Assembly (NCBI GenBank): GCA_965227295.1 | Contig: OZ245742.1 | Location: forward strand, 4,864,001 to 4,928,000 | Length of the DNA stretch: 64,000 bases | From: Leptonemataceae bacterium | GTDB taxonomy: Bacteria; Spirochaetota; Leptospiria; Leptospirales; Leptonemataceae | Reading direction: 5' to 3' | In this document: positions 5,509 to 32,100 of the stretch, piece after piece | Layout of the letters: the number at the start of each line of letters is the position of its first letter | Numbering within the stretch: the first letter of the stretch is position 1 | Notes under the pieces: generated by a model | The model's input: the letters and a program-made list of their open reading frames with translations, nothing else | What the model was told of the DNA's origin: nothing | Database searches by the model: none | Made by a program: the position numbers and the translations under genes

Positions 5509-5598
5509 GGGGCACCTCCGGTCGCCATGGCGTCGGCCCCGACTTGAAAACGCCACAAAAAACTGGACTGGAATCCGGAATCCCATGATTCCGGATTC

Positions 5599-15500: not shown

Positions 15501-17817
15501 TCGATTCGAAAGCGGACGACTTAGATGCCTTCGCCGCGGCTCTCCAGTTGTACTCAGCGAGTTGATTGCGTTCCGCCGGGTCCGTAACGTAGTCACGCCC
15601 TTCATTGTATTGATTTACGATGTCAAAGAGGCGGTCCTCGACGTGTTCGGCCGTAACGCTCTTCAGCAAGAGGTTACCGATCCGCAAATGGATTTGCTTG
15701 CGTTCCTGTTCGTCGATCAGCCCGTAGCTCGCCTGCTGGACCCGGTCGTGGGCGAAACGAAAACCCGGGTTCGTACCTTTCTGCAATTCGGCGTCGCCGG
15801 CCACCTCCGCTTTAATATCGCGAAAGGATTCATCCATGGGCAGGATCATCTCTTCCTCGATCGCGGGCCAGAGATCTTCCAGGGTATCATGCATGTTCTT
15901 TTCATGAATGACGGCGAGCGTACGCAAGTCGAACTTGTTGCCGATGCACGCCGCGAATTGCAGCACACCTTGCGCCTCGGGGCTGAGGCGCGTCAGTTTC
16001 TGGGTCATGAGTTCGACAACGTTGTCTTGAATACCGAGTTTGGAGATGTAGGCAACATCCCACGTCCAGCCCTGGTCATAGTCGAATCTCAAGTGACCGT
16101 TTTCGTAGAGGTCCTTTAAGAGTTCCGCGGTGAAGAACGCGTTCCCCTGCGTCTTGGAAAAAATAAGACCCGCCAGTTCCTGGCTTCGAGTCGAATCGGA
16201 CTGAAGCGCGTCGCTGACCAACTGAGTCACGTCTTCCAGCGCCAGGTTGGATACCGCAATTTCGTGGGAGATGACATCGCTATCTTTGCGGAGCGATTCG
16301 ACCATCGACATCAGCGGATGGGAGGCATCCACCTCATTGTCGCGATAGGCGCCGATAAACAGGAAGTGACTGTTATCTTCGTCGGCCACCAGGGCCTTTA
16401 GCAAGGCCAGGGAGGCGTTATCCGCCCACTGGAGGTCGTCGATAAAGAGGACGAGCGGATGCTCCGCCCGAGAGATTGCCCGCAAAAAACCCTGAAAGAC
16501 GCGGATGAATCGGTTCTGAGATTCCTGAGGCCCCAGTTCCGGTACGGCGGGTTGCGAACCGATCACATGCTCCAGCCCGGGAATCAGCTCGACCAGGACC
16601 TGGCCGTTGTCACCGACTGCATCCAGGATCTTTTGTTTCCACTCATCCAGCCGATCCGCGCTCTCCGTCAGCAAAAGCTGGCAAAGGTCTTCGAAGGCCT
16701 GGGAAATTGCATAGTACGGAATACCCTTCTGTAACTGGTCGAATTTACCGGCGATGAAATTGCCGCGCTTTTCCGTAATGGGACGATGGACCTCGTTCAC
16801 CAGAGCGGACTTCCCGACGCCGGAGAATCCTTTGACCAGGACCATCTCGCATCGTCCGGTCGCCGCGCGCTCGAATGCGCTCATCAGAGCGGTGAGCTGA
16901 TTGTCCCGTCCGTAGAGCTTTTCCGGAACCTTGAAGGTGCCCGAAAAATCTTTGGTGCCGAGATCGAAAGTTTCGATCTCCCCATCCTTCAATCGTTCGA
17001 GACACTCGTCCAGGTCATTGCGCAGTCCGATGGCAGACTGATAACGATCCTCGGCATTCTTGGCCATAAGGCGAGTAACAATGTCGGACAGAATTCTTGG
17101 AACCTTGGGGTTCACCTCATGCACGGGCTCAGGTACCCGGGCGATGTGACAGTGCACGAGTTCCATGCTGTCCCGGGTCTCAAACGGAAGGCGTCCGGTC
17201 AGAATTTCGTAAAAGGTCACGCCCAGGGAGTACAGATCACTGCGCGAATCTACAATCCGGTTCATCCGCCCCGTTTGTTCCGGAGAAATATACGCCAGAG
17301 TCCCTTCCAGGGTTTCCGGGTTTCCCAGGTGCTGGTTCTTGAGGTTGATCCGAGTGGAGATACCGAAGTCGATGAACTTAACCGTGTTGGTATCCGGGTT
17401 TACCAGAATATTGGCCGGCTTGATGTCCTTGTGAATGATGCCTGCGCCGTGTATTGTCGCCAGATGCGAAGCGAGAATTCGGGCGATCTTAAGAAACGAA
17501 CGTACCGCCAGGCGCCCGCGCCCGATCAATTCCTTCAAAGACATGCCGCCGAAATCTTCGAGGATGAGGGCAACACCGGAGGACGATTCTTGCAGCATCA
17601 GCGGTCGCACGGCCGCATCTTCTGCGAGGGCCTTGCCGAACTCAAACTCCTGCTGAAGCTTGGCCATCTCTCGTAAGCCTGGATCCCGATTTCGCGGGAC
17701 CTTTACAATAACCTGCTCACCGGAGTCCAGGGTCGCACGATAGACCACCGTTGATTGCCCCTGATGTACGACATCTCCGAGGCTATATTCGAGTTTCTTT
17801 TCCGTCTGTTCGGCCAT
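12562..17817 (-). CDS. Ser/Thr kinase - AAA ATPase - GAF - SpoIIE/PP2C phosphatase fusion
   Basis: Kinase HKDIKPAN, DFG, SPEQ, DLYSLG; Walker A GFSGVGKS; Walker B LFIDDLQWAD; GAF (YLEN); PP2C VGGDYYD, GDVTGHG, YTDGV, DDDVT. Confidence 0.92.
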   Translation of the reverse strand: MAEQTEKKLEYSLGDVVHQGQSTVVYRATLDSGEQVIVKVPRNRDPGLREMAKLQQEFEFGKALAEDAAVRPLMLQESSSGVALILEDFGGMSLKELIGRGRLAVRSFLKIARILASHLATIHGAGIIHKDIKPANILVNPDTNTVKFIDFGISTRINLKNQHLGNPETLEGTLAYISPEQTGRMNRIVDSRSDLYSLGVTFYEILTGRLPFETRDSMELVHCHIARVPEPVHEVNPKVPRILSDIVTRLMAKNAEDRYQSAIGLRNDLDECLERLKDGEIETFDLGTKDFSGTFKVPEKLYGRDNQLTALMSAFERAATGRCEMVLVKGFSGVGKSALVNEVHRPITEKRGNFIAGKFDQLQKGIPYYAISQAFEDLCQLLLTESADRLDEWKQKILDAVGDNGQVLVELIPGLEHVIGSQPAVPELGPQESQNRFIRVFQGFLRAISRAEHPLVLFIDDLQWADNASLALLKALVADEDNSHFLFIGAYRDNEVDASHPLMSMVESLRKDSDVISHEIAVSNLALEDVTQLVSDALQSDSTRSQELAGLIFSKTQGNAFFTAELLKDLYENGHLRFDYDQGWTWDVAYISKLGIQDNVVELMTQKLTRLSPEAQGVLQFAACIGNKFDLRTLAVIHEKNMHDTLEDLWPAIEEEMILPMDESFRDIKAEVAGDAELQKGTNPGFRFAHDRVQQASYGLIDEQERKQIHLRIGNLLLKSVTAEHVEDRLFDIVNQYNEGRDYVTDPAERNQLAEYNWRAAAKASKSSAFESTVEYLNIASTYLDADRAWDENHDLIWNIYADRASAEFSCTMFEESERDILYALDRCETDDERVRLYQIYLAVLFQLNRHEDGVDRAREALRKLGVSLPKKIGKVNVGLQYVLFRLRLGFRKAASLKNLKEIQNARVLNICKILYDMVPSAYIAQPDTMGYICVYMARLCLRYGNSMYSAFAYAMIALVQAGVTKEYKTSAQFMQLAMDLNEKNPDVDVKGRVHFTENGFTGHWTKPVMNHVEHMQIARQCFRDTGNLHWRNYAVAFSRTQSILFYNKTLPEIDEENVRFYDDHYRLRDREVTLNQYFLIGFIRKLRGMNMDDVPDMYDYSEEMFEKEMRTPGNFAVRTYFFTFKMIEAYTFEQYEEALKYAKDSFKIVLEVLGLLLDQAERFYFMLSVLAQSRKKSTGFFVGVAYRLNRFLLRHAAKNMPENFQVHYSLVLAEEARYKRKWEKAGRLYDTAIQEAEEAGYPIMLCLGNELAARCFAEQGKDRISSMYLHEAHRHWARWGAVAKVRDLEQKHPELRLSRFSVGRGGSSGDTTTISATTTAATATSTGGGGGLDMSTVVKATQAISGEIKLENLLSNLMKNVIENAGAQRACLLLEKDGALFLEAEDTTDTSAQPSILKSIPLSDANVPTSVMQYSLRTGQDVVLENAAVEGRFTRDDYIAAKKTKSLISHVITKQGRLVGIMYLENDLATGAFTPDRLEVLGILGSQAAISLENSRLVAEETERQKLQKEMEMAKHVQMSILPNALEDDDYNIAAHMTPAEQVGGDYYDYYRLDGHRWIAIGDVTGHGLNSGLLMLMAQTGFSAYLNSSPEPDTLQLFSALNKTLHENMANRTKQNLYMTFTALKADAEGNFEHVGKHEDILVWRKSTGKVEVIQSDGVWMGIVPTVDERMISKAQFHLAPGDFIILYTDGVIECRNESNEQFDTPRLIEVIETNAEHGIETVRDRIVEACFKFMSRQDDDVTLFLMEKK

Positions 17818-18526: not shown

Positions 18527-19444
18527 TCAGCCTTTGACTCCGGCCAGTATTCGCATGAGCTGATCACCAAGAATACGCATGAGGTATTCCCGGTGTGTCT
18601 GCATATAGAAGTGGTTGCCGGGGAACATCGTTAAATCGTATTCTTTGGTAGTTTGCTTCTTCCATTCCTCGATCTCTTCGATGATCACCAGCTTGTCCTG
18701 GACCGCACCGAATGTAGAAATCGGGATATCCAGGGGAGCCTCGTCGATGTATTCGTACGCCCGTAGTAGATCCAGGTCGGCATCCATTACCACGCGCGCG
18801 AGGGTCATGAGTCCGAGGTTTTCCAGAACCTCCGGCGGCGTACCCCCGAGTTCTACAAAAAAGTCGTCCACCATCCCTTCCGGAATATTGAAAATCACCG
18901 AGCGACGCTGCGGCCGCGGAATATGGGGCCCGATAAACGACGAGATGAACATGTGCTCCGGTAGCCTGGCGCCCTGCCGACGAAGTTGCCGGGTGAGTTC
19001 GAAACTGGTCAACCCGCCCATGCAGTGACCAAAGAACGCGTAGGGTCTATCCAGAAACGGTGCGACGTTTTGCCCGAGTGCCTGAATCATCGGGAAAAAA
19101 TCCCGGTAGGGAGTTTCGTTCAGGCGATCCTCCCGGCCCGGAAGCTGGATCGCGCAAATCTCGACGTCCGCGGCCAGGGATTCGTGCCACGAGCGGTAGA
19201 GAGACCGTGCACCGCCGGCGTAGTGAAACGTGAAGAGTCGCATCTTCGCATTCGGCTTCTCTTCCGTTATGTGCACCCACGGATTGGCCTGTTGCGGTTT
19301 GGCCGCGGTCGTCGCGGCGGCGCCTCCGGCTGATGGACTCCGAGAAGCCGGTTGCCGGGCTGCCGGTCGTGCTCCATCGCCCTGCTGTGCAGGGCCACCG
19401 GAACGATTCTTAATTTTTGCGATTAGATCTTGTTTCTTACTCAT
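18527..19444 (-). CDS. Type II thioesterase with Cys nucleophile (GHCMG) and N-terminal extension
   Basis: LFTFHYAGG, QLPGRE, GHCMG, GNHFY. Start MSKKQ at 19444 overlaps the PKS-NRPS stop (ATGAGTAA). Confidence 0.88.
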   Translation of the reverse strand: MSKKQDLIAKIKNRSGGPAQQGDGARPAARQPASRSPSAGGAAATTAAKPQQANPWVHITEEKPNAKMRLFTFHYAGGARSLYRSWHESLAADVEICAIQLPGREDRLNETPYRDFFPMIQALGQNVAPFLDRPYAFFGHCMGGLTSFELTRQLRRQGARLPEHMFISSFIGPHIPRPQRRSVIFNIPEGMVDDFFVELGGTPPEVLENLGLMTLARVVMDADLDLLRAYEYIDEAPLDIPISTFGAVQDKLVIIEEIEEWKKQTTKEYDLTMFPGNHFYMQTHREYLMRILGDQLMRILAGVKG

Positions 19445-22400
19445 TTTCCGCCTCGTCTTCCAGTAATTGACTCCGCACGATTTCCTTAAGGTCTTCCTGT
19501 GACATCTCTTCAAGCGCCATTAAGGCTTCATTCAACTCCAGGTCTTTCTCTTTCTGAGCCTTCTTTTGCAAGACAATTTTACCGAGTTCCGAAATAGAGG
19601 GCGCCAGATACACACTGCTGACCGGTAAGTCTATATCCATTTCTTCCGAAAGTCGCGCCGCCACAACGAAGGCAGTCAGAGAATCCCCCCCGAGGTCAAA
19701 AAAGTTGTTATAGATCCCGACCTCGCCGTACTCTCGCTGCAGGACATCGATCCACACAGTCTGAATTACGCCTTCGATGGAGGTTCGCGGACTGACAAAG
19801 CTCTGCTCGGTTTCAAAATACTTTTTGCCGTGCTCAGTCCCCTCGCTTTCCAGCGCTCCTGCACCGGATCCCGGAAAACGCAGCGCAGTCTCGTTGACCG
19901 AACCATCCGGCAATTCTGGAAGGGAGTCAAGGATTACAAAGTTCAATGGAATCAGAAAATACGGTAATCGACTCTGGAGAAAGGTGCGCAGTTGCGTAAT
20001 CGAAAGCTGCTGGTGTTCCTTGAAATGCAGTGTAAACTCCTGTAGCAATTCGAGAGTTGCTTCGTCAGGTTCAAAGTTGAATCCCGTACGATTTGTGTCA
20101 TCGCGCCAGGCAAGCCAGCACTCCAGCTTGAGGGGATCAATGATGCCGGGCAAAGACAGCAAGATCCGCATCCGCATATCTTTCTCCCAGGCGACCGGAG
20201 CATCCAGAATGCTAACCCCCGTCGTCGAAATCTCACCTGCGGTCATCTCAAACCGACGGCCATCTTCCATTTCCACGGTGCACCGCCGACGTATGGGAAT
20301 ACGCGGCATCTGGCTTTCGTGCGCCAGAGTGAACTGTTCCAGCTCCAGAAGATAGGCCAAACTCTTTTTCAGGAGGGAGGCCTCCACAGGCGAAGTCTGG
20401 AAACCCACTCCGGCCAGTCCGTCCTCAATCCAGCGGACTTCACCACCTACGCGAAACTCATCGAAGAAGCCGGGCAACAGAAGGGTAATCCTCAGATGCA
20501 TGCCGACTTTCCAGTCCGCCGGCACGCCCTGTAGACGCAGGCCACCGGGAGAAACATCCTGAGTCACCAGGGTGATTCGCTGACTATCGCCGTACTCCAC
20601 ATGACAGTGGATGGTAGTGATCAATCGATCCACGATGCGATCCGAGACGATGTAAGCAACCAGTCCGTTGCCGGCCAGCTCCTGGTTCTGCGTCACGTAT
20701 GCCTGGGTAATCGCAGGATGTTCTTCGATCGCCAGTTCCAGTTCACGCAGATTTATATCGCGGCCCTCGATTCCGGCCGTACGCTCTCGAGACCCCAGCA
20801 ATTGAATCTCCCCGGAAGCATTGTAGCGGGCCAGCAGACCGGTTCGAAAGAGCCGTGCGTCCTTAGCTTTCGAAAAAGGACTCTTAACGAATCGTTCCCC
20901 GGTCATCTTTTTCTCGTTTCGATAGCCGGAAGCCAGACCGGGACCGCCGACGTAGAGCTCGCCGACAAACTCCAGGGCAGCAGGCTGCATCTGATCGTCG
21001 AGGATGTAGGCTTCCATGTCGTCGATGGGCCGTCCGATCGGAGGATAGTCCGGCCAGTCGAGAGAACGAAAATCCTTGAGGCGATAAGCGGCAAAGAGAC
21101 CGGTCTCAAAGGTACCGAAACGATAGTTTACTTCGCAGTAGCCGAGCTTTTCCAACATCTCGACCAACTGCCTCGTAATCGAAATCCGGCTGCCGACCAG
21201 ATGAACCTCTCGGAGGTACTGCGGAACCAGATCTTGCTCATGCGCGACCCGGGCAATGCCGCGAAGTACACCCTGATCGGCGAAAATCCGTTCAACGAAA
21301 TGGTCCTTCAGAAACTTGACGAATTCCATATCCTGTCTGCTTTTCTGCGGCGCGATAACGACCGTCCCGCCGGTCGCCAGAGTGGCGAAGGCTTCATGAA
21401 ACAGAACGGAAGAGCTGACCGAGTTGTGCAGCAACGTCCTGGCTCCGAGGGAGAGAGGAGAATTCCGAATGGTATACATCAGCGAGTGGACAAAGCTCGC
21501 GTGGTCCACCTCCACCCCGAGCGGTTTCACCTGATCGTGAGCACGGTAAAACAAAAAAGCGGTGGGATTGGCGGGGACCTTTACGGATTTCGCTGTCTTC
21601 GCCGCCTTCTTTTTGGCCGCTTTTTTCTTTGAAGCCTTCTTTTTCCCCCTGGCAGCCTCCGCCACAACGAACTGACCCGTGCGTAGTTCCAAAACCATAC
21701 GCTGATTCGCAAAATCCTCCGGCCCGCGAATGTCTTGCTCGGCGAAGGTGATGAGCTTGAAAGGATCGGCATCGTGCATGAAGACACTCATGCGCGCCAC
21801 GGAGTATTCGGGGTCCAGGGGCAGAACCGTGCCGCCGACTTTGAGAATTCCAAGTACGGCAGCCAGGAAGGCAAAGGAGCGATCACCGGCCACGGCGACG
21901 ACAGCGCCGGCCGGAATACCCTGTTCCGTAAGATGATCCGCAACCTGTCCGGCTCGCTCGTCGAGATCCGCGTAGGTGAACTTCTGTTCCCCATCTACCG
22001 CGGCAATCGCCCCGGGCACCAGGCGGGCCATGTTCGCTACGAGTTCGTGAATCAGTACGCCCTTCGCCTCAAGGTCCGTCAACAGGCCGTGATGGGGAAC
22101 CGCTTCGGGTGCCGCCTCCCGTTGACGAACGGCTTGCAACTCCTCGCTCACCGGCACGGCGTGCAGGTTCAAGCCATCGACCGAGGTCTTCGGTGCCTGC
22201 CCGGCGCTTTTCAGAATTTCGGCATAGGAAGCCGCGAAGTGTTCCATCGTCGTACGTGCATAGAGTTCCGTCTTGTACCGCAGATCGATACGCAGACCAT
22301 CGTCGCCGCGTCGAATCATTACGACGATATCATCGAAGCCCGCAGTTCGATCGAGGTCGAGCACGTCTATATCCAGCCCGTCAGGAAGACTTCGGGATTC

Positions 22401-25400
22401 CTCTTCAAAGACAAAAGCAAACTGCACAAGCGGGGAACGCGAAGGATCACGCAGAGGATTCAATTCTCTGACGACCTGGAGGAACGGCACATTCGCGTGC
22501 GGTTCGATCCGTTGCAGGTCCTCTCGAATATTCTGCTGAAGGACGGAAATGCTCTGGTCGCCCGACACGCCGACTCGCAGGACAAACAGATTCGTGAGCG
22601 GACCAAGGGGTACATCGGGTTGTACGGGAGACATACGCCGATACACGCCGAGGGGTAGGTCCGTAAGACCGGTGACACGATGCAGGAGAGCAGCCGCGGC
22701 ACTGACGATGACTGGAAGCTCGTCTTTCGGCGCGCTTCCGGAGAACGCTTCCACCGGAACATCAAAGCCTACGGTTTCCGTCCGGAAATTGCGCAGCGGT
22801 GGAATACTCCTGGCAGTGGGCAGCCTTACCGCAGGAAGATCGCCCTGTAGATACTCCTTCCAGAATCTCAGGTTGGCGTCGGTCACCGTCCGGGCGGCCG
22901 CATACTCCCGGTACGGTGTCGGATAAGCAGCCGCGCCTGAATCAGTACCGGCCAGTAAATCAAGCAGTTCCTGTCCGAAAGCCCGGATAGCCGTTTCATC
23001 AAGGATGACGGTATGAGCGGCAATCAACAAGATACTTCCGGATGCGAGTGGAAACAGGCGAACGCGCACCAACGGAGAACGACTCACGGTAAAACCTTCC
23101 TGCGCCCGCGCGATCAATGAATCGAGAATTTCTTCTTCGGATAGTTCTTCGGTATCTACGATTTCGAAATCCGGTGCGGCACCGGAATAGATACGTTGAA
23201 CGGCAACACCGACTTTCGAGGCAACGGACGTCCGCAGGAATTCATAGCGTTTTGTTAATGTTTCAAGAGCTGAACTTACCTGGTTACCGCTGAGTTCGGC
23301 ACCGACAATGTAGGCCACGTGCACGTTCGTAATGTTCGCCCCGGGAGCGACCCGGTCCATAAAGTACGCACTCTCCTGCTCCGGAGACAACGGAAACTCC
23401 TCGAAGGTAAAACCACCGGCAGCCTCGGGGATATCCAGATTCTTGAGAATGTAAATGGAAAGCTGAGCAATACTGGAGCCGTCGGTAATGCGTCCGGCCG
23501 ACAGCTCATAGTCAAGGTCCCGACGCACCCGGCTTTGCAGTTCTACTCCCATGAGAGAATCGATGCCGATCTCTTTCAATGACCGTCCCGGTTCCAGGCG
23601 CGAAACGGGATAACGCATGATCTCTGCTACATTCTTCGCGATGTAGCCCTGCAGCATGGCTCCGCGTTGATCCTCCGGTGTTTTCGCCAGAACGGCCAGC
23701 GAGAAAGGCTGCCCGGAATCCAACTCCCGCGCCGAGGATTTCGCCGGTGCGACGCTGATCCGCGAAGCCAGGATATCTCGATACAACGGACTCGCCGCGG
23801 GCTCTTTCATCGTCGCCTGGAAACGATCCCAGTCGATCTTTATGGCGACGGGCACGGCTAACTGGTGGACAATAGATGCTTCGAGAACGGCCAGGCCGCG
23901 GCGCGAAGACAACGCATGGATGCCCCGGGACAGAAGATTCGCAATCATGCGACTTCCGGTGTCAGACTGCGCGGCAAAACCCGTGTCAGCCCAGGGACCC
24001 CAGACAATGCTCGTTGCCGGCAGCCCCAGAGAACGGCGATAGTGAGCCAGGGCATCCAGGAAAGCGTTACTGGCCGCGTAGTTGGCAAGTCCGTCCGCCA
24101 GCCCGGTGACCGCACCGGAGACGGAAGAGAACAGAACAAAAAAATCGAGTTCGGTATCGGCCAGACACTTATGGAGGACCCAGCCACCGTTCACCTTCGG
24201 ACGAAGAACTTTATGCAGTGCGTCTGCATCGAGATCCATCACCGACCGCCCTTCCAGGACTCCCGCCGAATGAATCACGCCGCGCAGCGGAGGATGGTTG
24301 GCATTGTACTCCTTAAGAAAGTCGTTGAAGCTGTCCTCGTCGGCCGTATCCACGGCGGCGGTGACGATTTCGATCTTTTCGCCGCCCAGGGATTCGCCCA
24401 GGCTTTCGAGGTGGCGCAGTGCCTGAATGCGATCTTTGACCGATTCCCGGTGATCGCCGTCCCAATCTTCCCGGGGCGGCAGCGGCGTGCGTCCGAGGAG
24501 GACCAGGTGCCGGGCCCCCTTCTCGATCAACCAGCGGGCAACCAGCAACCCGATCCCGGTCAGTCCGCCGGTCACCAGATAACCGGCGTCCGCGCGAACC
24601 TCCGCCGATGCCGGCTCCAGTCCCGTAATCGCATGCAGGCGTGCCACGTAACGATCGCCGCCGCGCAGAGCCACATAGTCTTCGTCATCATCGCTTTGTA
24701 ATTCGACAAAGAGCAACTCAGCGGCCTTCGCGGGATCGATCCCCGCTTCCAGATCGACGAGACCTCCCCAGATCAAGGAATGCTCCACCGCCACCGCCCG
24801 GGCAAATCCCCACACAGCCGATTCGATCAGGGATGAGGGTACTTCGTCGCCGATCCGCTGCGCGCCCTCGGTCACGAGGAAAACCCGAGGCCGGTGATCC
24901 GTCGGCACGGCATCCTGGGATTGGATGGCGTGAGTCGTACTCATGAGAACAAGATCATGCACGAGAGCGATCGTCTCCGGAGTGATGTCCTCAGGCGCCA
25001 GCGGGTCGAGGCCCCACAGATTGACCATCGTAAACGGCGTGTCCGGCTCTACCTGGATGAGATCGTCCCGGAGGCCGACGAAATCATCACGGCTGGCCGG
25101 GTTCAATTCGTACTGATCGCGATCGAGTTTCTGAAACTCTTCCCCCGGGAATACCAGGACGGCACGACCACCGGCTGCCTCTGCCAGCGTAGCCAGGGCC
25201 TTGCCGACCCCACGGCCGTCACACAGAATCAGCCAGTTCAGAATCGCCGCGCGATGCTCGCCTTCCCGGGCCTTCGACTGCCAGGTTGTTTCGTAGAGCC
25301 AATCTTTGATGCCCGGGCCGCGCTCTTCTTCCGCGCCCCCATCGTCAACAGGCAGTTGCAGATTGCGCCCCTCGGGCAGCAAACGCTCCCAACGAATATC

Positions 25401-28400
25401 GTAACCAGCGCAATGGATTCGCCCGAGGGCGGCGCGGGTCATGCGAAAATCGTCCACCTTGCGGCGCAGGGTCGGCACAGCGAGGCCGTCGAATCCGCCT
25501 TCCTGCAAGGTCTGCTCAATGGGCACGGTCAGTACGTTATGCGGCCCGATTTCGATAAAAAGATCCGACTCCTCCTCTGCCAGGGTCCGAATCGCCGGAG
25601 CAAAAGAAACAGCCTCGCGCATATTGCGCGGCCAGTAAGCGGCTCCAAAGTCGCCGGTAGCCGCAGCTTCGCCCGTCACCGTGGATACGATCGGCAGCAG
25701 GGGCTCGCTGACGGGCAGACCGCGCAGGGCTTCCTGTAACTCTTCTTTGAAAGATTCCATCTGCGGGCTGTGAAAGGCGTAGTTTACCGGGAGCATCATC
25801 TTGAACACTCCTTCGGGCAGACCGTCCACGACCGCCTGAACCGCTTCTTCTTCGCCGGAGAACACGACGGAGTTCGGGCTGTTGTGCGCGCCAACCGCGA
25901 TGCGATCTTCCTTGCCGGCGATCCGCCGTCGGGCTTCCTCCAGAGGAATTCCCGCTGCCGCCATACGGCCGAGCCCCGTAGCCTTTTGCATGACGCGCGA
26001 ACGATGGTAGATGACCCGCACCGCATCAGCCAGAGCCAGGACACCGGCAGCATGAGCGGCAGCAACCTCGCCGACACTGTGGCCGACCAGGGCATGCGGA
26101 CGCACGCCGTAATGCGCCAGGGTTTCTACGAGGCCGACCTGCAGGGCGAAGATGGCCGGCTGCGCTACCTCTGTTTCGCTCAGGCGCGACTCTTCGGCCG
26201 GGCGACGCAGTTCGTCAATGATGGACCAGCCTGTATGTTCGCGCAAGAGGCGGTCGATCTCTTCTACTTTCGCGCGAAAGACCGGCTCTTGTTCCAGCAA
26301 CGCCGTCCCCATGCCCGGCCACTGCGAACCCTGACCGGAGAAAGCGAAGACAACACGATGTTTGCCCGGTCGGACTTCGCCGCGGCTCACATACGGACTG
26401 GATGCTCCTTCCAGGGCTTCGGCAAGGTGCTCGCTGAGTTCATCGCCGGAATTACCAACGATGGTCATGCGAAACTGTTTCGGATCGCGCTTACGGGCGG
26501 CCGTGCAGCAGAGTTCCTCGAACGCGGCGGCATCGTTGCGGCCCTGCAACCACTGGCGATACAGTGCTGCCTGCTTGTTCAGAGCTTTTGCATCCGGGGC
26601 GCTGAGGGCCAGAATACGCGGCACATCGGACTTGCCGGTCTTTGCATTGGGATTGGCCACAGCCTCATCCCAGGTCATAGTGCGACCGGCGTCCTTCTTG
26701 CGTGCCGTAGATTTGCGTTCGACATTCTCGCCGACAACGGCATCACGAAAGTCCACGTCGATCCAGTACCGATCCCTCGTCCAGGCATGCAGGGGGAGAT
26801 CCACGTGTCGGGCAAATCGGGGGAACAGGCCCGCCAGCTTTACAGGAGCGCCGGCTGCATGCAGCGCAGCAAGTGCATCCATCGCAGCCGCGGTGCAATG
26901 GGAACCAGCCAGGGAGAGGCCCACAGCCACGCCTGGCTGTTCCATTTTCGCGGCCTCTTCCGCGAGGACGGACTGATGGCCAGCGTCCGGCGATAGATCA
27001 ATGAAGAGATCGTGGCCGTCTTCGACTGCCTGACGGACCGAGTCGGTGAGTTCCTCGCCAGAAAGCCTCAGCTCGGACGGAGAAATCTTACCCGCGAACG
27101 AAAAGACTCCGTCGTCGTCGCCGTGATCCCGAACGAACTGTAATGCATCGTCCGGAGATGTCCCGCTGAGCGCCAGGGCGGCCCCCGCTCCCGCGGCCCC
27201 CTGCCCCATCATCATCAGAGGTTGCACTCCGGCCTGCCGGAGCACAGCTCCCAATGCTGCCTGGAGTGCAGCCACGGCGTAACGATCCAGATCGGGGTCC
27301 CGATCCGCGGGTGCGTTAGTACAGTAATTTAGAAGAGACTTCGAGTTATTGTTCAACAACTGCTGGAGCGAGATGTCCCATGCTTCGAGGGTTTCTCGCA
27401 GCACCGGCAGGGCCGCGAGGTCTTCCTCCCGGATGCCCGGCATTCCATTCACCGTGCTCGACAGGACGAACGCGGCCTTGCGTTTCCGGCGGGGATTCAC
27501 CTCACCGCTGTGGACGCCTGCTGCTTTGCCGTTCAGGAAGTCGTCGAGCAAATCGGCGAGGCCTTCTTTTGAAGTTCCGGCAATACATACGCGATGTAAA
27601 TGCTGGTCTCGACGCAATGTCGCATTGTAGGCAATCTCGTAGAGATCGTGGTTGGTTTCGCGGAGAAAATCCCGATACCGACCGGCCATAATCCGAAGAG
27701 CCTCGGAGTTGTGCGCGGTTACCGGCAAGAAGACAACATCCTCGCGTCGGATGAAAGCATCGGGCACATCGTCGTCGTGCTCAGGTTCTTCCGGAGCATC
27801 CGAAACGATGATGTGCGCATTGGTACCGCCGAGGCCGAAGGAGCTTACTCCCGCGTAACGCGGCGTGTCGCTTTGCTTCCATTCCCGGGTCTCGGTCGGA
27901 ATGATGTACTTCGATGTATCAAGGGTGATATGCGGATTAAGGTTCTCAAAGTGCAGGTTACGCGGAATCCGATTGTTTCGCAGGGAGAGCACGGTCTTCA
28001 TGAAGCCGGCCACACCCGCCGCGGTTTCCAGGTGGCCGATGTTCGTTTTTACCGCGCCCAGGACGAGGGGCTTCTCGGCCGTACGTCCCTGACCGTAAAC
28101 GGAGGTAATCGCATCCACCTCGATCGGATCGCCGAGTTCGGTTCCTGTTCCATGAGCCTCGACATAACCCACATCTGCCGGAGCAATGCCGGCGAAGCGA
28201 GACGCGCGGGTCAGCACGTCCTTTTGAGCCTGCATGTTGGGTTGGGTCAGGCCCACGCCGCGACCGTTTTGATTTACGGCGGATCCGAGAATCACGCCGA
28301 GCACTCGATCCCGGTCTGCCAGAGCGTCGGACAGACGCTTGAGCACGACGAGTCCGCAGCCTTCACCCCGCACGAATCCGTTCGCGCGGGAATCGAAGGT

Positions 28401-29180
28401 CATGCACCGGCCGTCGGGCGACAGAGCGCGGAGCCGTGAGATTCCCAGAGTCATCATCGGAGTGAGGTGCAGGTTCACTCCGCCGGCTACAGCCATATCG
28501 CATTCGCGAACCCGTAATGCCTGGCAACCGAAATGAATCGTCGCGAGGGATGATGCGCACGAGGAATTCACCCCGACACTCGGTCCCTTTAGATCAAAGG
28601 TAAACGATAGTCTGTTCGCGCCAAAGCCCGGAGCGTCGCCCGTGCTCGTGTAAGGATCAATTAAGTCAATGTTCGCATGCGTGAGCTGACCGTAATCCCT
28701 GGCGTAGACACCGACATAGACACCGGCTCGAACCCCCGCAATGCTCTCTCTCGTGTACCCGGCATTCTGAAAGGCTTCGTAGGCAACCTCGAGCACCAGG
28801 CGTTGCTGCGGATCGAGGTTGGTCGCCTCGCGCGGATTGATGCCGAAGAAACTCGCGTCGAACTGATCGACCTGATCCAGGAATCCGCCCCAGCGCGAGT
28901 AGATACGCCCGGGCGCGTTTTGATCGGGATCGAAGTAATCGTCGAGATCGTACCGGTCCTCCGGCACCTCACGAATGGCATCCACTCCGTCCTCAAGGAG
29001 TTTCCAGTAGTCGTCCGGCGACTCCACGCCGCCGGGCAAACGACACCCCATACCGACCACGGCGATGGGCTCCCGCTCCCGGGACTCCAGGTCTTCGATG
29101 CGCGCACGCATCTTCTGCATGGCGGCCAGGGCCCGCTTTACGGGAGATATCTCTTTTGACGATCCTTTGTTATCACTCAT
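19437..29180 (-). CDS. Hybrid PKS-NRPS: KS-AT(degenerate)-AT-KR-ACP-C(degenerate)-A(degenerate, with 2x PilZ insertion)-PCP
   Basis: KS NSSCASS/EAHGTGT/NIGHLE; AT GHSVG...YAFHS; KR TGGLTGIG...YAASN; ACP GIDSL; C HTVILDE; A FTYADL, GELYVGGPGLASGY, LPYFLIP; PCP FFDLGGDSL. Confidence 0.92.
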   Translation of the reverse strand: MSDNKGSSKEISPVKRALAAMQKMRARIEDLESREREPIAVVGMGCRLPGGVESPDDYWKLLEDGVDAIREVPEDRYDLDDYFDPDQNAPGRIYSRWGGFLDQVDQFDASFFGINPREATNLDPQQRLVLEVAYEAFQNAGYTRESIAGVRAGVYVGVYARDYGQLTHANIDLIDPYTSTGDAPGFGANRLSFTFDLKGPSVGVNSSCASSLATIHFGCQALRVRECDMAVAGGVNLHLTPMMTLGISRLRALSPDGRCMTFDSRANGFVRGEGCGLVVLKRLSDALADRDRVLGVILGSAVNQNGRGVGLTQPNMQAQKDVLTRASRFAGIAPADVGYVEAHGTGTELGDPIEVDAITSVYGQGRTAEKPLVLGAVKTNIGHLETAAGVAGFMKTVLSLRNNRIPRNLHFENLNPHITLDTSKYIIPTETREWKQSDTPRYAGVSSFGLGGTNAHIIVSDAPEEPEHDDDVPDAFIRREDVVFLPVTAHNSEALRIMAGRYRDFLRETNHDLYEIAYNATLRRDQHLHRVCIAGTSKEGLADLLDDFLNGKAAGVHSGEVNPRRKRKAAFVLSSTVNGMPGIREEDLAALPVLRETLEAWDISLQQLLNNNSKSLLNYCTNAPADRDPDLDRYAVAALQAALGAVLRQAGVQPLMMMGQGAAGAGAALALSGTSPDDALQFVRDHGDDDGVFSFAGKISPSELRLSGEELTDSVRQAVEDGHDLFIDLSPDAGHQSVLAEEAAKMEQPGVAVGLSLAGSHCTAAAMDALAALHAAGAPVKLAGLFPRFARHVDLPLHAWTRDRYWIDVDFRDAVVGENVERKSTARKKDAGRTMTWDEAVANPNAKTGKSDVPRILALSAPDAKALNKQAALYRQWLQGRNDAAAFEELCCTAARKRDPKQFRMTIVGNSGDELSEHLAEALEGASSPYVSRGEVRPGKHRVVFAFSGQGSQWPGMGTALLEQEPVFRAKVEEIDRLLREHTGWSIIDELRRPAEESRLSETEVAQPAIFALQVGLVETLAHYGVRPHALVGHSVGEVAAAHAAGVLALADAVRVIYHRSRVMQKATGLGRMAAAGIPLEEARRRIAGKEDRIAVGAHNSPNSVVFSGEEEAVQAVVDGLPEGVFKMMLPVNYAFHSPQMESFKEELQEALRGLPVSEPLLPIVSTVTGEAAATGDFGAAYWPRNMREAVSFAPAIRTLAEEESDLFIEIGPHNVLTVPIEQTLQEGGFDGLAVPTLRRKVDDFRMTRAALGRIHCAGYDIRWERLLPEGRNLQLPVDDGGAEEERGPGIKDWLYETTWQSKAREGEHRAAILNWLILCDGRGVGKALATLAEAAGGRAVLVFPGEEFQKLDRDQYELNPASRDDFVGLRDDLIQVEPDTPFTMVNLWGLDPLAPEDITPETIALVHDLVLMSTTHAIQSQDAVPTDHRPRVFLVTEGAQRIGDEVPSSLIESAVWGFARAVAVEHSLIWGGLVDLEAGIDPAKAAELLFVELQSDDDEDYVALRGGDRYVARLHAITGLEPASAEVRADAGYLVTGGLTGIGLLVARWLIEKGARHLVLLGRTPLPPREDWDGDHRESVKDRIQALRHLESLGESLGGEKIEIVTAAVDTADEDSFNDFLKEYNANHPPLRGVIHSAGVLEGRSVMDLDADALHKVLRPKVNGGWVLHKCLADTELDFFVLFSSVSGAVTGLADGLANYAASNAFLDALAHYRRSLGLPATSIVWGPWADTGFAAQSDTGSRMIANLLSRGIHALSSRRGLAVLEASIVHQLAVPVAIKIDWDRFQATMKEPAASPLYRDILASRISVAPAKSSARELDSGQPFSLAVLAKTPEDQRGAMLQGYIAKNVAEIMRYPVSRLEPGRSLKEIGIDSLMGVELQSRVRRDLDYELSAGRITDGSSIAQLSIYILKNLDIPEAAGGFTFEEFPLSPEQESAYFMDRVAPGANITNVHVAYIVGAELSGNQVSSALETLTKRYEFLRTSVASKVGVAVQRIYSGAAPDFEIVDTEELSEEEILDSLIARAQEGFTVSRSPLVRVRLFPLASGSILLIAAHTVILDETAIRAFGQELLDLLAGTDSGAAAYPTPYREYAAARTVTDANLRFWKEYLQGDLPAVRLPTARSIPPLRNFRTETVGFDVPVEAFSGSAPKDELPVIVSAAAALLHRVTGLTDLPLGVYRRMSPVQPDVPLGPLTNLFVLRVGVSGDQSISVLQQNIREDLQRIEPHANVPFLQVVRELNPLRDPSRSPLVQFAFVFEEESRSLPDGLDIDVLDLDRTAGFDDIVVMIRRGDDGLRIDLRYKTELYARTTMEHFAASYAEILKSAGQAPKTSVDGLNLHAVPVSEELQAVRQREAAPEAVPHHGLLTDLEAKGVLIHELVANMARLVPGAIAAVDGEQKFTYADLDERAGQVADHLTEQGIPAGAVVAVAGDRSFAFLAAVLGILKVGGTVLPLDPEYSVARMSVFMHDADPFKLITFAEQDIRGPEDFANQRMVLELRTGQFVVAEAARGKKKASKKKAAKKKAAKTAKSVKVPANPTAFLFYRAHDQVKPLGVEVDHASFVHSLMYTIRNSPLSLGARTLLHNSVSSSVLFHEAFATLATGGTVVIAPQKSRQDMEFVKFLKDHFVERIFADQGVLRGIARVAHEQDLVPQYLREVHLVGSRISITRQLVEMLEKLGYCEVNYRFGTFETGLFAAYRLKDFRSLDWPDYPPIGRPIDDMEAYILDDQMQPAALEFVGELYVGGPGLASGYRNEKKMTGERFVKSPFSKAKDARLFRTGLLARYNASGEIQLLGSRERTAGIEGRDINLRELELAIEEHPAITQAYVTQNQELAGNGLVAYIVSDRIVDRLITTIHCHVEYGDSQRITLVTQDVSPGGLRLQGVPADWKVGMHLRITLLLPGFFDEFRVGGEVRWIEDGLAGVGFQTSPVEASLLKKSLAYLLELEQFTLAHESQMPRIPIRRRCTVEMEDGRRFEMTAGEISTTGVSILDAPVAWEKDMRMRILLSLPGIIDPLKLECWLAWRDDTNRTGFNFEPDEATLELLQEFTLHFKEHQQLSITQLRTFLQSRLPYFLIPLNFVILDSLPELPDGSVNETALRFPGSGAGALESEGTEHGKKYFETEQSFVSPRTSIEGVIQTVWIDVLQREYGEVGIYNNFFDLGGDSLTAFVVAARLSEEMDIDLPVSSVYLAPSISELGKIVLQKKAQKEKDLELNEALMALEEMSQEDLKEIVRSQLLEDEAENE

Positions 29181-29190
29181 TCAGTACTTC

Positions 29191-32100
29191 TCAGTTCTCA
29201 AACATTTCGAGTTCTTTCTCGAGCAGGGCTTCCGCATCTTCATCGGAAAGAGAGTCCAGTTCGTTTTGATCCAGAACCTTCTCTGAGGAACCGGATGCGC
29301 GACGAGCCGCAACCGGTTCTTCCGTCGTTGGGGCCGTTACTTCGCCCGCCCCGTCGAGGGGAATGCCCATCTCCGATGCCAGGTGCGGCCCCATCAGCGC
29401 GATAGTAGGGTACGCCCAGGCCAGGGTGGCCGGCAGTGTAAGACCCGTAGCCGCCTGCAGGCGGTTACGCAATTCCAGCGCCATCAACGAATCCAGTCCG
29501 AAGGAACCCAGGGGTTGATTGACGTCGACGTCTTCGGGTGACAGGCGGAGCACCTGCGCCGTAATATTCTGCAGGTAACTCAAGATCAGCGTCACACGCT
29601 CTTTGCCGTCTTCTACGGCCATCAGCTCTTCCCGCAGGTTGACGCCTTCGCCTTCGCCGGCCACTGCTTCCGCCGTGATGTTTTCCTGCTTTGAGAGTTC
29701 GTCGTAAAGCGGAGTTTCCGCGGCACTCTTGTAGTTCTGAAACCACTTCTTCAGATTCAGCGGCATCACAACGGCGCGCGCTCGGTCGGCCTTCAGCAAG
29801 AAGTCGAGGGATTTCACCCCGGCCTTCAAAGAGAGCGGCGTGAGGCCACGGGCTTCCAGGCGATCGCCGCGCACGCCTTCGGCCGCGGCCAGGCCCACCT
29901 CCGCCCAGGTCCCCCAGTTCACACTGAGACCGGGACGTCCTTCCGAACGCATGCGGTTGGCGAGTGCGTCCATAAAGGCGTTCGAAGCCGCGTAGTTACC
30001 CTGACCGACGGTTCCGAGGATCGCTGAAGCCGAAGAAAACAGGACGAAAAAGTCGAGATTCACGTCCTTTGTCTTTTCGTATAACATCCAGGCGCCGCGG
30101 ACTTTAGGAGCCATGACGCTCTCAAAGTGTTTTGCGGTCATTTGCAGGAGCGTGCTGTCATCGAGTATGCCGGCAGAGTGAATGATACCTTTCAATTCCG
30201 GCAGAGACTTCAGCTCGCCAAACATACGATCCACATCGTCCGCCTGCGCGATGTCGCCCTTCGCGATCGTAACCTTCGCGCCGAAGCTTTCGATTTCGGA
30301 AATCTGCTCGCGCACTTCGGGCTTCGGATCGCTCCGTCCCGTCAGAACGATGTGACCGCCGCCGCTTTCGGCGATCCAGCGGGCGAAGGTCAGGCCGAGG
30401 CCGCCCATCCCGCCGGTGATCAAATACGTGCCGTTCTTCTTGAGTTCATACGGTCCGCGCGCGCTCTCCTGCTGAACCTTGTGTTTTGAAACTCGAATGA
30501 GGCGAGCACACAGCCGCTCCCGCCCCCGCAGGGCCACGCGATTCTCCGAAGAACCGGAGAGGAGTTCCCCGGCGAGGATACGGGCCTCCTGGGCATCCGC
30601 GTTGCCGAGGTCCACGGCGCTGCAATGAAATTCTTCGTGTTCGTTGATGGCTACGGAAACGAGCCCCCAGACCGCCGCCTGCTCGGGATGAATCTTTTCA
30701 TCCGATTTACCGGTCGCCTGGGCGTTGCGGGTCGCAACCCACAGTCGCGGCTGAAGACTGAAGCCGGCCTGCAGAAATGCCTGCATTACATAGACCACGC
30801 TCACGGTCGTCGCCGGTCGGGCGGCCTCAATCTCGGCCACGGTAGGCGCTTCGTAGGTGTGCGGCAGACTCCAGGCATGCAGCACGCCGACCGGGGGGCC
30901 ATCCGGAAAGGCTTCAGCGACCAGCTTCGCGAAATCCTCGGGGTTGGCCGGGTTCACGGTGTAGCCGTCGCCGTTTTTCGCATAGCCGTCTCCGGCCGTT
31001 ACCGTGACAACATCGGCACCGCGCTTCTCCATCTCCCCGCGTAAGACCGCATCAAACTCGTCTCCGTTTCCGAGGACCAGCCAGGTTCCCTTCACGGCCG
31101 CGGCCTTCTTCGGATCCTCCGCAAGTGTTACGGTTTCCCAGTCAAACTCGTAAACGATGTCGCCCAGTCTTTGTTCGGAACGCAGCAGGCCTTCCACCGG
31201 CGTACGCTTAAGGTTGAAGTCCTGCGCCTCCAACAGCACACGACCTTCATCGTTGAACATTACGAGATCGCCACCGAACAGTTCCTTGTTTTCCCTCGAA
31301 CCGGTTTTCAGCTTGTAGTAACACCAGATGCCTTCCGACGGCGGAACCTCATAGAACCGCAGGTTGCCGGCACTGAACGGAACGTATAGAACGCCTTCCT
31401 CTTTGATCCATGGAACGCCACCCGGAATACCGTTACACCCGTGCTGGAAAAGCGAGTCCATGAGACCAGGATGAATTTGGTACACTTCGAGGTCCGGGAT
31501 CGATTCAGGATTCTGAACCTTCAGTTTGCACAGTGCTTCGCCGTCCCGGCGCCACACATCATCGATCCATTCGAAGGACGGACCAAGTTCGTAGCGCGCG
31601 GCAAAGAACCAATCCTGGAACTCGCGGCCGGTCAATCGTTCACTGCATCGTTCTTTAATCGCGTCCAGATCGAGGCCGAAATCGGAGATGTGCTTACGTT
31701 CATCCGTATCTTCCAGACGGTAGGTGGCCATCGCATGATGAGTCCAGTCTCCCTCCGGCCCGTCTTCCTGCGAAATGCTGTAGATGTTCACGTTCCCGGC
31801 GTGGCTGCCTTCCGCTCCCGGCTCATAGATGAGATGGGTCATGCGGGTTTCGTCGAAACCAATGACATTCGCCTGCAAAAAGGAAATGTTGTTGAGCGTC
31901 ACAGTGTCGCGCCCAAATCCTTCGCGAATTCCGCTCAACATAAAGGAGATATTGCAGGCTCCCGGAACAACGAGCGCGCCACCGATGATGTGATCTCGAT
32001 ACGCGGGCTTATCGGGAGTAAACGGTGATTCAAATTCGACCGTCTTCCGTACGGGTGACGATCTACGAAAACCGAGGAAGGGATGTTCGTCCGGCGCCAG

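Follow-up and report, generated by a model that had tools for sequence, protein, structure and literature searches.

The gene at positions 19437-29180 of the window, by which is meant the whole 64,000-nucleotide stretch of DNA analysed, encodes a 3247-residue synthase (P0001) whose layout, derived from the ORF list, the translation and the Pfam architecture, is KS-AT-KR-ACP-C*-A*(PilZ-PilZ)-PCP; this gene and all other features described below lie on the minus strand. The KS Cys and His, the AT motifs GHSVGE and YAFHS, the KR motif YAASN and the ACP motif GIDSL are all present, and the C-A-PCP end spans residues 1928-3205, the region 19560-23400 corresponding to about residues 1927-3207. The PCP (residues 3136-3205, 19566-19775; Pfam PP-binding, PF00550 match at residues 3139-3201) carries GGDSL with Ser 3167 (19677-19691) and is followed by a conserved, acidic, helical C-terminal tail with the motif LSQEDLK (19440-19565; alignments), which may serve to dock the thioesterase. 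The latter is free-standing (18527-19444; Pfam Thioesterase and translation), its ATG overlaps the synthase stop by 8 nt, its N-terminus forms a conserved KKQDLI helix, and its nucleophile is the Cys of GHCMG, a motif found in 5/5 orthologues; the second thioesterase of the window has GHSMG. Next to these genes in 5/5 genomes stands one for a 1751-residue Ser/Thr kinase-AAA16-GAF-SpoIIE(PP2C) protein (12562-17817; Pfam), and the cluster also holds a free-standing PilZ gene (5146-5751; Pfam PilZ, 30.5 bits), conserved at the corresponding position of G001 and G002, whose product has DISETG and no clean RxxxR.

The C* domain (residues 1928-2339, 22164-23399) reaches 153.2 bits with Pfam Condensation (PF00668, cut-off 30.6), and its alignment with Txo2 (6p1j) sets HTVILDE (residues 2056-2062, 22995-23015) against HHIVSDG, bearing out the predicted replacement of HHxxxDG: the first His is retained, the catalytic second His has become Thr, and Gly has become Glu. 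Similarity of A* to adenylation domains is evident from PF00501 (142 bits for the core, residues 2386-2845, 20646-22025) and from a phmmer match to LgrA 6mfz (E 5e-80); with TIGR01733, by comparison, it attains only 216.2-222 bits, below the curated cut-off of 317.4. A column comparison took the 68 positions at which 36 active cores reach an identity of 90% or more: A* retains 38 of these, active rows 53-68 (median 67). Compared with LgrA and the 36 active cores, A* reads FYRAHDQVKPLG (21516-21551) in place of the expected A3 motif YTSGSTGKPKG; the Phe-Asp of the A4 region is Ser-Ser (21405-21428), A5 is NYRFGTFET, with Tyr for Asn (21102-21128), A7 is FRTGLL, with Leu for Asp (20832-20849), and A8 has eroded from GRxDxQVKIRGxRIExxEIE to GSRERTAGIEGRDINLRELE (20736-20795). 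The remaining C-terminal subdomain of A* (residues 3057-3110, 19851-20012) includes A9 (LPYFLIP, 19947-19967), which is kept, and A10 (PDGSVNETAL, 19881-19910), in which the catalytic Lys is replaced by Ser. Also kept are A1 (FTYADL, 21963-21980), A2 (LKVGGTVLPLDP, 21810-21845) and A6 (GELYVGGPGLASGY, 20922-20963), together with GGDSL of the PCP, and the core contains a Lys-rich loop (21579-21647). A* is in this way left without P-loop, ribose-binding Asp, hinge motif and catalytic Lys, and its motif losses exceed chance. Alignments and coordinate checks bore out all the motif readings of the original prediction, including an ORF that runs unbroken through the C-A-PCP module in the translation of 19437-29180.

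The same losses characterise 11 related records (class I), nine of them full length, which have in common the degenerate C and A domains, the PilZ insert described below and the PCP Ser. The A3, A7 and A8 patterns match in 0/11 class I records, the A3 Thr and Gly columns, the A4 Phe-Asp and the A7 Asp are each kept in 0/9 rows, and the A10 Lys is found only in P0122 among these relatives. Likewise, 0/9 full-length relatives keep the catalytic second His in their C domains; they have T, S, S, R, M, A, R, K and R at that position, so no new conserved catalytic residue has arisen there. Within the 5.94-Mb genome, no A domain exceeds the TIGR01733 cut-off (the best is A* itself) and no Condensation domain other than C* was found. 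With A* and C* the only NRPS domains of their types in the genome, the evidence supports a module that adds no amino acid, in agreement with what had been predicted from the motifs, and it is very probable that the terminal module is catalytically dead.

A module of this kind might still elongate if a free-standing adenylating enzyme supplied its PCP in trans, in the manner of albicidin-type systems, and if C* condensed by means of other residues. The accessible part of one source describes such trans-complemented inactive A domains for albicidin, cystobactamid, ramoplanin and enduracidin, besides the glycopeptide X domain, a dead C domain (PMC8949500); the synthase resembles all of these in having C or A folds without canonical chemistry, and the PCP Ser is conserved in 10/10 relatives whose sequence extends that far. 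The modules of those trans-complemented systems, however, go on elongating; the present one has lost the chemistry of C as well as A, there is no A domain in the genome to complement it, and it bears an insert of sensor type. The five ANL enzymes ranking behind A* are best matched as fatty-acid, acetate, acetoacetate or benzoate-type CoA ligases or acyl-ACP ligase, no [A-T] gene was found in the window, and the variable catalytic-His position offers no substitute residue, all of which makes elongation in trans very unlikely.

The key feature of the module, overlooked in the original prediction, is a 211-residue insert (residues 2846-3056) of two PilZ domains (PF07238; 36.3 and 28.4 bits, Pfam cut-off 22.5) that interrupts A* between A8 and A9 and gives a concrete basis to the 'sensor' role proposed there as one option. 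PilZ1 (residues 2846-2950, 20331-20645) bears both binding-type motifs, RIVDR (20625-20639) and DVSPGG (20541-20558). The linker to PilZ2 (residues 2951-3056, 20013-20330) carries RIPIRRR (20283-20303), so that PilZ2 has RIPIR, but its EISTTG (20217-20234) has Glu for Asp/Asn; Glu or Gln occupies this canonical Asp or Asn position in the class I family. Foldseek searches with an AF2 model of middling confidence (pLDDT 68.9, pTM 0.44, 5-sequence alignment) returned MotI 5vx6 (E 9e-8), PlzA 7mie, YcgR 5y6f and MrkH 5ejl, as well as BcsA chains. The two-domain matches (probability 1.00, 224-236 columns, E 9e-8 to 3e-6) have an rmsd of 12-14 Å, and with two-domain superpositions at about 12-18 Å their geometry is not informative; single barrels of the predicted structure match 4xrn (TM 0.70, rmsd 3.3) and Alg44 4rt1 (TM 0.72). 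The PilZ folds are almost certainly real, and the arrangement, two PilZ-type barrels in succession joined by a segment bearing RxxxR and structurally matching family members, is that of YcgR-like xPilZ-PilZ receptors. The nearest Atlas clusters to the insert are free-standing PilZ proteins of 213-234 aa, which is the length of the insert.

The pair would probably bind c-di-GMP. A non-binding pair could instead serve as a protein-protein adaptor, for example with the kinase-GAF-phosphatase or the free-standing PilZ protein as partner, or in localisation, and several observations would suit such a role: PilZ2 deviates from [DN]xSxxG, the first barrel of active PilZ-bearing NRPSs lacks the first Arg, the kinase gene is syntenic in all five genomes, and non-binding PilZ-related domains are common according to the accessible part of a preprint (Galperin and Chou, 10.1101/814665). 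The PilZ1 motifs nevertheless hold across class I at overall identities of 35-61%, DxSxxG in 11/11 records and RxxxR in 9/11 (a count that includes RIVDR of P0126, read outside the narrower motif pattern; two relatives have QIVDR), and the genome encodes a c-di-GMP network with 15 GGDEF matches, so a purely adaptor or localisation function seems unlikely.

Whether the module is retained or merely decaying is addressed by its relatives. The class I records form one clade in the tree, from which it follows that the dead state persisted through speciation, and the gene is found in synteny with the Cys-type thioesterase and kinase-GAF-phosphatase genes in five Leptospirales-type genomes of at least four genera, with frames open in all five and the same architecture in the nine full-length records. 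A skipped relic without role, its tail tolerated while the thioesterase unloads the ACP directly, would be consistent with the long class I branches and with the divergence of C and A core from the same-genus orthologue (44% and 52% identity, against 72% for KS and 73% for KR); their pN values of 0.39 and 0.32 exceed those of KS (0.19) and KR (0.18), so that both change about twice as fast. Such a relic is, however, quite unlikely to have kept its architecture and open frames in a clade that outlasted speciation, to have preserved its PCP Ser in every relative that reaches it, or to conserve PilZ1 (81%, the highest of all domains), the PCP (77%) and the A9-A10 piece (76%) at or above the level of the active PKS domains (the tail is at 72%). 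The pN of 0.32-0.39 in C and A also lies far under a saturated pS, dN/dS not being calculable because synonymous sites are saturated, and the losses are concentrated in catalytic columns; together with the open frames, the single clade and the conserved Ser, this sustains the predicted retention over random decay. That the A fold now senses a ligand in what was its substrate pocket, independently of PilZ, could be read into seven class-specific invariant columns of A* (e.g., Tyr 2686, Arg 2631, Glu 2658 and Arg 2665), but the columns that once formed the pocket or bound nucleotide differ among the relatives, A3 showing as many as seven residues at one column in nine class I rows, which indicates relaxed constraint and not a new conserved site and renders that idea highly improbable.

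Homologous inserts at the same site occur in active A domains, mostly of cyanobacterial NRPSs, such as P0136 (Oscillatoria princeps), P0153 (Microcoleus sp. FACHB-831), P0088 and P0027, all annotated merely as 'amino acid adenylation domain-containing protein'. The PilZ1 profile matches these proteins at 1e-14 to 1e-24; unlike the window synthase, they have A3, A7, A8 and A10 intact and are not PKS hybrids. Among the other 34 PilZ-bearing A domains, A3 matches in 31, A7 in 31 and A8 in 30, the A3 misses being two records truncated at the N-terminus and P0154 (position 771), and the A7 misses three truncated internal repeats in which A8 is missing too; P0210, also outside class I, likewise lacks A8. 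The second barrel is canonical in seven records (RRxxxR and [DN]xSxxG), and P0263 combines RRxxxR with ELSCGG.

No published description of PilZ inside A domains was found, and PilZ and c-di-GMP have 0 occurrences in the accessible part of a survey of a8-a9 interrupted A domains, which include TioS A-M-A (PDB 5WMM) (PMC8341866). As in these, foreign sequence interrupts A* between A8 and A9 and the fold of the subdomain is retained, but the guest is a non-catalytic receptor pair and not a methyltransferase, ketoreductase or oxidase, and the host is dead where theirs is active and the guest catalytic. With YcgR, MotI, PlzA, MrkH and PilZ-PilZ tandems it has in common two PilZ-type barrels and RxxxR in the linker; it differs in being embedded in a megasynthase loop instead of free-standing, global superposition is poor, and both barrels bear motifs in the window-synthase family. 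BcsA and Alg44 are polysaccharide synthases under the control of terminally fused PilZ domains; the present synthase, a PKS-NRPS with an internal PilZ insertion, would resemble them if c-di-GMP acts post-translationally through the built-in domains.

The best explanation, to which a probability of roughly 0.5 is assigned, is a module that does not elongate but responds to c-di-GMP in handing over and releasing the chain, ligand binding and gating being deduced. The terminal C-A-PCP would be a pseudo-module whose two folds serve as a platform, and the mobile C-terminal subdomain of A* carries both PilZ barrels as one complete unit at the a8-a9 site, a position taken by methyltransferases in other NRPSs. 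The switch segment of PilZ1, with its RxxxR, would form the physical joint to the subdomain. Placed between the last ACP and the docked Cys-thioesterase, the holo-PCP (the genome has 2 PPTase genes) would take up or present the completed beta-hydroxyacyl chain. During catalysis the A subdomain turns by about 140 degrees, and YcgR-type receptors clamp upon c-di-GMP; ligand on the PilZ pair could reposition the subdomain-PCP unit and so switch hand-over and release. As a receptor-type PilZ pair is built into the module, c-di-GMP may act directly on product release, and gating of hand-over or release by c-di-GMP is plausible at somewhat below even odds. The suggested passing of the chain to PCP and thioesterase fits the architecture, for example that of P0125, a relative with PCP and TE fused. 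In the enacyloxin system (Masschelein et al. 2019), the PKS reportedly passes the chain to a PCP on another protein for release, with a KS0 domain and a C domain that is active reportedly performing the two transfers. The proposed route is alike in that a PKS carrier hands the polyketide to an NRPS-type PCP ahead of off-loading, but with C* lacking its His no catalyst for ACP-to-PCP transfer is evident here; we infer thiol-thioester exchange in the C tunnel as a route, or the thioesterase might take the chain directly from the ACP.

To our knowledge, c-di-GMP control of polyketide or non-ribosomal peptide synthesis has been known only at the transcription level. A receptor inside the synthetase would, if true, constitute a direct post-translational switch, in which case shifting the c-di-GMP level up or down could be a simple means of waking silent clusters, and ligand-switchable synthetases would have a natural template. 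More broadly, and as a tentative proposal, PilZ pairs in the moving lid of NRPS A domains may make loading, or in the dead module hand-over and release, depend on c-di-GMP. The Leptospirales-type family would then have gone furthest, its module stripped of chemistry and serving purely as a gate through which c-di-GMP controls how the Cys-thioesterase frees the polyketide. The class I family is a clear case of pseudo-enzyme evolution in a megasynthase, in which the catalytic columns drift while carrier, lid and sensor stay.

The C-terminal 1,320 residues of a 3,247-residue synthase (P0001; 19437-29180, minus strand) constitute a terminal NRPS module that has lost its own chemistry and has nonetheless been kept. 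According to Pfam, the KS, AT, KR, and ACP domains of this protein are followed by a Condensation domain (residues 1928-2339; C*), an AMP-binding domain (2386-2753; A*), PilZ in two stretches, and a PP-binding domain (3139-3201; PCP). All of the expected PKS motifs were found (the KS Cys and His residues, GHSVGE and YAFHS in the AT, YAASN in the KR, and GIDSL in the ACP), and this portion of the protein looks active from its motifs. Two PKS genes lie upstream on the minus strand, encoding KS-AT-AT-DH-ER-KR-ACP (34884-42749) and KS-AT-DH-KR-ACP (29191-34887), while the genes downstream on the same strand encode, in order, a thioesterase, a SnoaL-like cyclase, a kinase-AAA16-GAF-SpoIIE protein, a biotin carboxylase, a PilZ protein, an FAD mono-oxygenase, a type II thioesterase, and a histidine kinase. 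In this arrangement, the degenerate module closes P0001 and the assembly line alike.

Several neighboring features deserve mention. Both AT domains of the 34884-42749 gene carry GHSxGE (residues 639 and 988), and one of them may load the starter. The single-chain biotin carboxylase (BC-BCCP-carboxyltransferase, 1994 aa; 6400-12384, minus strand) lies inside the cluster, is kept in two genomes of the same genus (G001 and G002), and may supply extender units. The Ser/Thr kinase-AAA16-GAF-SpoIIE(PP2C) gene (1751 aa; 12562-17817, minus strand) is syntenic with the synthase and thioesterase in 5/5 genomes, making it a candidate regulator or partner of the cluster. Within P0001 itself, approximately 530 extra residues separate the KS from the AT (413-943; 26352-27944, minus strand), in which the KS-AT linker families occur twice (two stretches each of CurL-like_PKS_C and of the RhiE-like linker) and a degenerate AT-like stretch can be discerned by eye; this region is shared with the G001 orthologue only, the remaining three orthologues covering 27-28% of it.

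The original prediction, made from the sequence alone, held that the terminal module is catalytically degenerate in its C and A domains with an intact PCP, and every motif that it quoted is present where it was reported. Alignment of C* to Txo2 (6p1j, E 8.9e-27) places AHTVILDE opposite MHHIVSDG, such that the first His is retained and the catalytic second His is replaced by Thr; the second-best PDB match of C* is 8Z0Q, a "special condensation domain" for which a literature search returned nothing relevant. Alignment of A* to LgrA (6mfz, E 5e-80) reveals FYRAHDQVKPLG in place of YTSGSTGKPKG at A3, Ser for Asp at A4, NYRFGTFET at A5, FRTGLL versus YRTGD at A7, an eroded A8, and PDGSVNETAL versus NGKVDRRAL at A10, with A1, A2, A6, A9, and the PCP motif GGDSL intact. 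A* scores 216-222 bits against TIGR01733, for which the cut-off is 317.4. A Lys/Ala-rich low-complexity loop, GKKKASKKKAAKKKAAKTAKSVK, separates A2 from the former A3 at residues 2512-2534 (21579-21647, minus strand); G001 has a shorter version and the three other orthologues have none, and a role as stand-in for A3 was rejected on the grounds of its absence from 3/4 orthologues.

A column comparison of nine full-length family members with the same dead domains (class I, described below) and 36 active A cores, all from one protein set, extends this picture. At the 68 columns that are at least 90% identical in active cores, P0001 keeps 38 and its relatives 28-43, versus 53-68 (median 67) in the active rows. 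The losses are focused on particular positions: all nine class I members lack the Asp of A7, the Thr and Gly columns of A3, the Phe-Asp of A4, the Asn of A5, and the Glu of A8. Structural glycines are retained, as are A1, A2, and A6. The lost columns differ among relatives, with up to seven residue types per nine rows in A3, a variability that amounts to relaxed constraint rather than new conserved chemistry and makes an unlikely rival of the reading of A* as a pocket sensor. Together, the motif check, the Txo2 and LgrA alignments, and the 68-column comparison bear out the predicted degeneracy, and the module is incapable of activating or condensing an amino acid by canonical mechanisms.

Loading of the carrier by a separate enzyme is a rival explanation, and inactive A domains complemented in trans, as well as the X domain, have been described (PMC8949500, as far as the consulted portion of that article extends). 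The 5.94-Mb single-contig genome offers little to such a scheme: C* is its only Condensation domain, no A domain above the TIGR01733 cut-off occurs anywhere in it, and its next five ANL enzymes score highest as CoA ligases (fatty-acid, acetate, acetoacetate, or benzoate-type) or as acyl-ACP ligase.

The feature that the original prediction passed over is a 211-residue insert (2846-3056) between A8 (2796-2815) and A9 (3072-3078) of A*, which comprises two PilZ domains (36.3 and 28.4 bits, Pfam cut-off 22.5). The first barrel, PilZ1, carries RIVDR and DVSPGG, its RxxxR following immediately upon the A-subdomain strand LVAYIVSD, and the second, PilZ2, carries EISTTG, with RIPIRRR in the linker between the barrels. 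In an AF2 model of residues 2740-3135 (5-sequence alignment; mean pLDDT 68.9, pTM 0.44), the best Foldseek matches are two-domain c-di-GMP receptors, namely MotI/DgrA (5vx6, E 9e-8), PlzA (7mie), YcgR (5y6f), and MrkH (5ejl); these superpositions span 224-236 columns, but at an rmsd of 12-14 Å. Single PilZ domains are also matched (4xrn, TM 0.70, rmsd 3.3; Alg44 4rt1, TM 0.72), and in the Atlas the insert comes closest to clusters of free-standing PilZ proteins, 213-234 aa in length (score 0.93-0.94). Word-index searches, which are uninformative on family size, gave no match at E 1e-5 for the PilZ pair among proteins of 371-2000 aa and three matched proteins for the region 2840-3062. A separate, free-standing PilZ gene (5146-5751, minus strand) encodes DISETG without a clean RxxxR; it occupies the same cluster position in G001 and G002 at 41-53% identity, and none was found in the G019 locus as far as that locus sequence extends.

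Whether the module is a relic that the assembly line skips can be weighed from its conservation. The erosion of C* and A* is what such a relic would display, and relative to the G001 orthologue these domains are 44% (C*) and 52% (A* core) identical; the PKS domains stand at 72 (KS), 64 (AT), 73 (KR), and 64% (ACP), and the kept parts at 81 (PilZ1), 61 (PilZ2), 76 (A9-A10 piece), and 77% (PCP). For the A9-A10 piece, identity to the three distant orthologues (55-61%) is on a par with that of the KS (54-57%). By the Nei-Gojobori method, synonymous differences between P0001 and its G001 orthologue are saturated (pS 0.63-0.89), and pN is thus quoted without a dN/dS ratio: 0.39 for C*, 0.32 for A*, 0.19 for KS, 0.18 for KR, 0.15 for PilZ1, and 0.13 for PCP. 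Set against the saturated pS, the values for C* and A* indicate weaker but real purifying selection, and the lid (the mobile C-terminal subdomain of the A domain), sensor, and carrier are under strong selection. The expectation that the module adds no amino acid and has been retained is supported and can be sharpened to that of a conserved pseudo-module.

Related modules were sought in 41 genomes (own, genus, family, and order), 5 of which contain a full-length A*-PilZ-PCP match within ORFs of 2,870-3,268 aa: the own genome, G001 and G002 of the same genus, and G019 and G008 of the same family. No full-length match was obtained in a second family (0/16 genomes). Among sequencing runs, no RNA-type match was listed, and the two DNA-type matches stem from a single study. 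Further members came from searching 1.84 billion representatives without a profile, and P0002 from a separate search, bringing class I to 11 records, nine of full length (P0001, P0002, P0122, P0123, P0125, P0126, P0127, P0130, and P0143) and two fragments (P0124 and P0131); the proteins of G019, G002, and G008 seem to correspond to P0122, P0126, and P0130, respectively. Each is a PKS-NRPS hybrid whose dead module comes after the final ACP and closes the protein, with the architecture KS-AT-KR-ACP-C*-A*-PCP or variants having a cMT and two ACPs (P0123), lacking the KR (P0143), or lacking the KR with a fused TE (P0125). The A3, A7, and A8 patterns match in 0/11 records and the A10 Lys is present in one, while the PCP Ser is found in 10/10 (the eleventh record stops short of the PCP). 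The C domain has kept its second His in 0/9 (T, S, S, R, M, A, R, K, and R being found there) and its first in 8/9. PilZ1 has RxxxR in 9/11 and DxSxxG in 11/11, and PilZ2 has [E/Q]xSxxG, with an RxxxR-type linker in most members. In a quick IQ-TREE analysis of 45 A cores, which carries limited weight, class I forms a single clade (SH-aLRT 100) on long branches.

Homologous inserts also reside in ordinary NRPSs whose A domains are intact, including tandem-barrel forms such as P0136 (Oscillatoria princeps, C-A-T-TE) and P0153 (Microcoleus sp. FACHB-831, A-T-TE), single-barrel forms (P0088, P0027, and P0003), and P0128, with three barrels within one A domain (residues 3117-3430). Outside class I, 34 A domains bear PilZ, and A3 is present in 31 of them (the misses being two records cut at the N-terminus and P0154 position 771) and A7 likewise in 31 (the misses being three truncated internal repeats). 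Such repeats, A8-PilZ-A9-A10 without an A core of their own, occur in the cyanobacterial NRPSs P0088, P0129, and P0132. The second barrel is canonical (RRxxxR and [DN]xSxxG) in seven active tandem forms, P0263 having RRxxxR with ELSCGG, and the first barrel of these forms lacks the first Arg. The PilZ-bearing A domain stands first in 10, last in 8, alone in 7, and in the middle in 3 of 28 assignable cases, a purely descriptive tally from short proteins. A pattern search built from the active tandem alignment reduced to a generic A10 pattern that mostly returned ordinary A domains and is no guide to distribution. In a weak FastTree analysis (69 PilZ units, 109 columns), PilZ1 and PilZ2 of class I are sister clades, such that the class I tandem would be its own duplication.

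The terminal module has been kept with a PilZ pair bearing binding-type motifs, and a working model may be outlined. The C*-A* core would act as a rigid platform and the lid-PilZ-PCP unit as the working part, with the PCP serving as a carrier that feeds the thioesterase, a role argued from the kept PCP serine, the PCP-TE fusion in one relative, and the helices on both partners (an acidic, conserved C-terminal helix on the synthase and, at the N-terminus of the free thioesterase, a conserved helix reading KKQDLI or KLKQDLL that sits on a flexible linker). In lieu of a catalytic C domain, the chain might pass from ACP to PCP by thiol-thioester exchange between two pantetheine arms in the C* tunnel. 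Binding of c-di-GMP would order the RxxxR joints, namely the lid-PilZ1 junction and the PilZ1-PilZ2 linker, altering the positions that the lid and PCP can reach and thereby switching hand-over and release; in active relatives, the c-di-GMP event would act on loading. GGDEF is matched 15 times and PilZ 12 times in the genome, which also has two genes of the PPTase family. An adaptor that operates independently of c-di-GMP, a less likely rival, would accommodate the departure of PilZ2 from [DN]xSxxG, and is disfavored by the motifs that PilZ1 keeps (RxxxR in 9/11 and DxSxxG in 11/11) and by the GGDEF matches. The working model as a whole is given roughly even odds (about 0.5).

The free-standing thioesterase (18527-19444, minus strand) possesses a Cys nucleophile (GHCMG) in 5/5 orthologues, each of which follows a last PKS module with a KR and without a DH and hence a beta-hydroxyacyl end; in the KR-less P0125, the fused TE reads GHSLG. 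Given that the GXCXG thioesterase of ObiF forms a beta-lactone (PMC6668435, from the portion consulted), release of the product as a beta-lactone may be taken as a lead by analogy.

No description of PilZ fused into an NRPS or adenylation domain was found among titles and abstract openings, in which subscription journals are thinly covered. The accessible portions of a survey from 2020 covering interrupted A domains (PMC8341866) contain zero occurrences of PilZ or c-di-GMP, and those of a preprint by Galperin and Chou on PilZ-related domains (10.1101/814665) never mention adenylation, peptide synthetase, or polyketide. Within the pseudo-module, conservation is highest in its carrier domain and in a built-in pair of the c-di-GMP-receptor type. 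In summary, the terminal module belongs both with the interrupted A domains and with the pseudo-enzymes.
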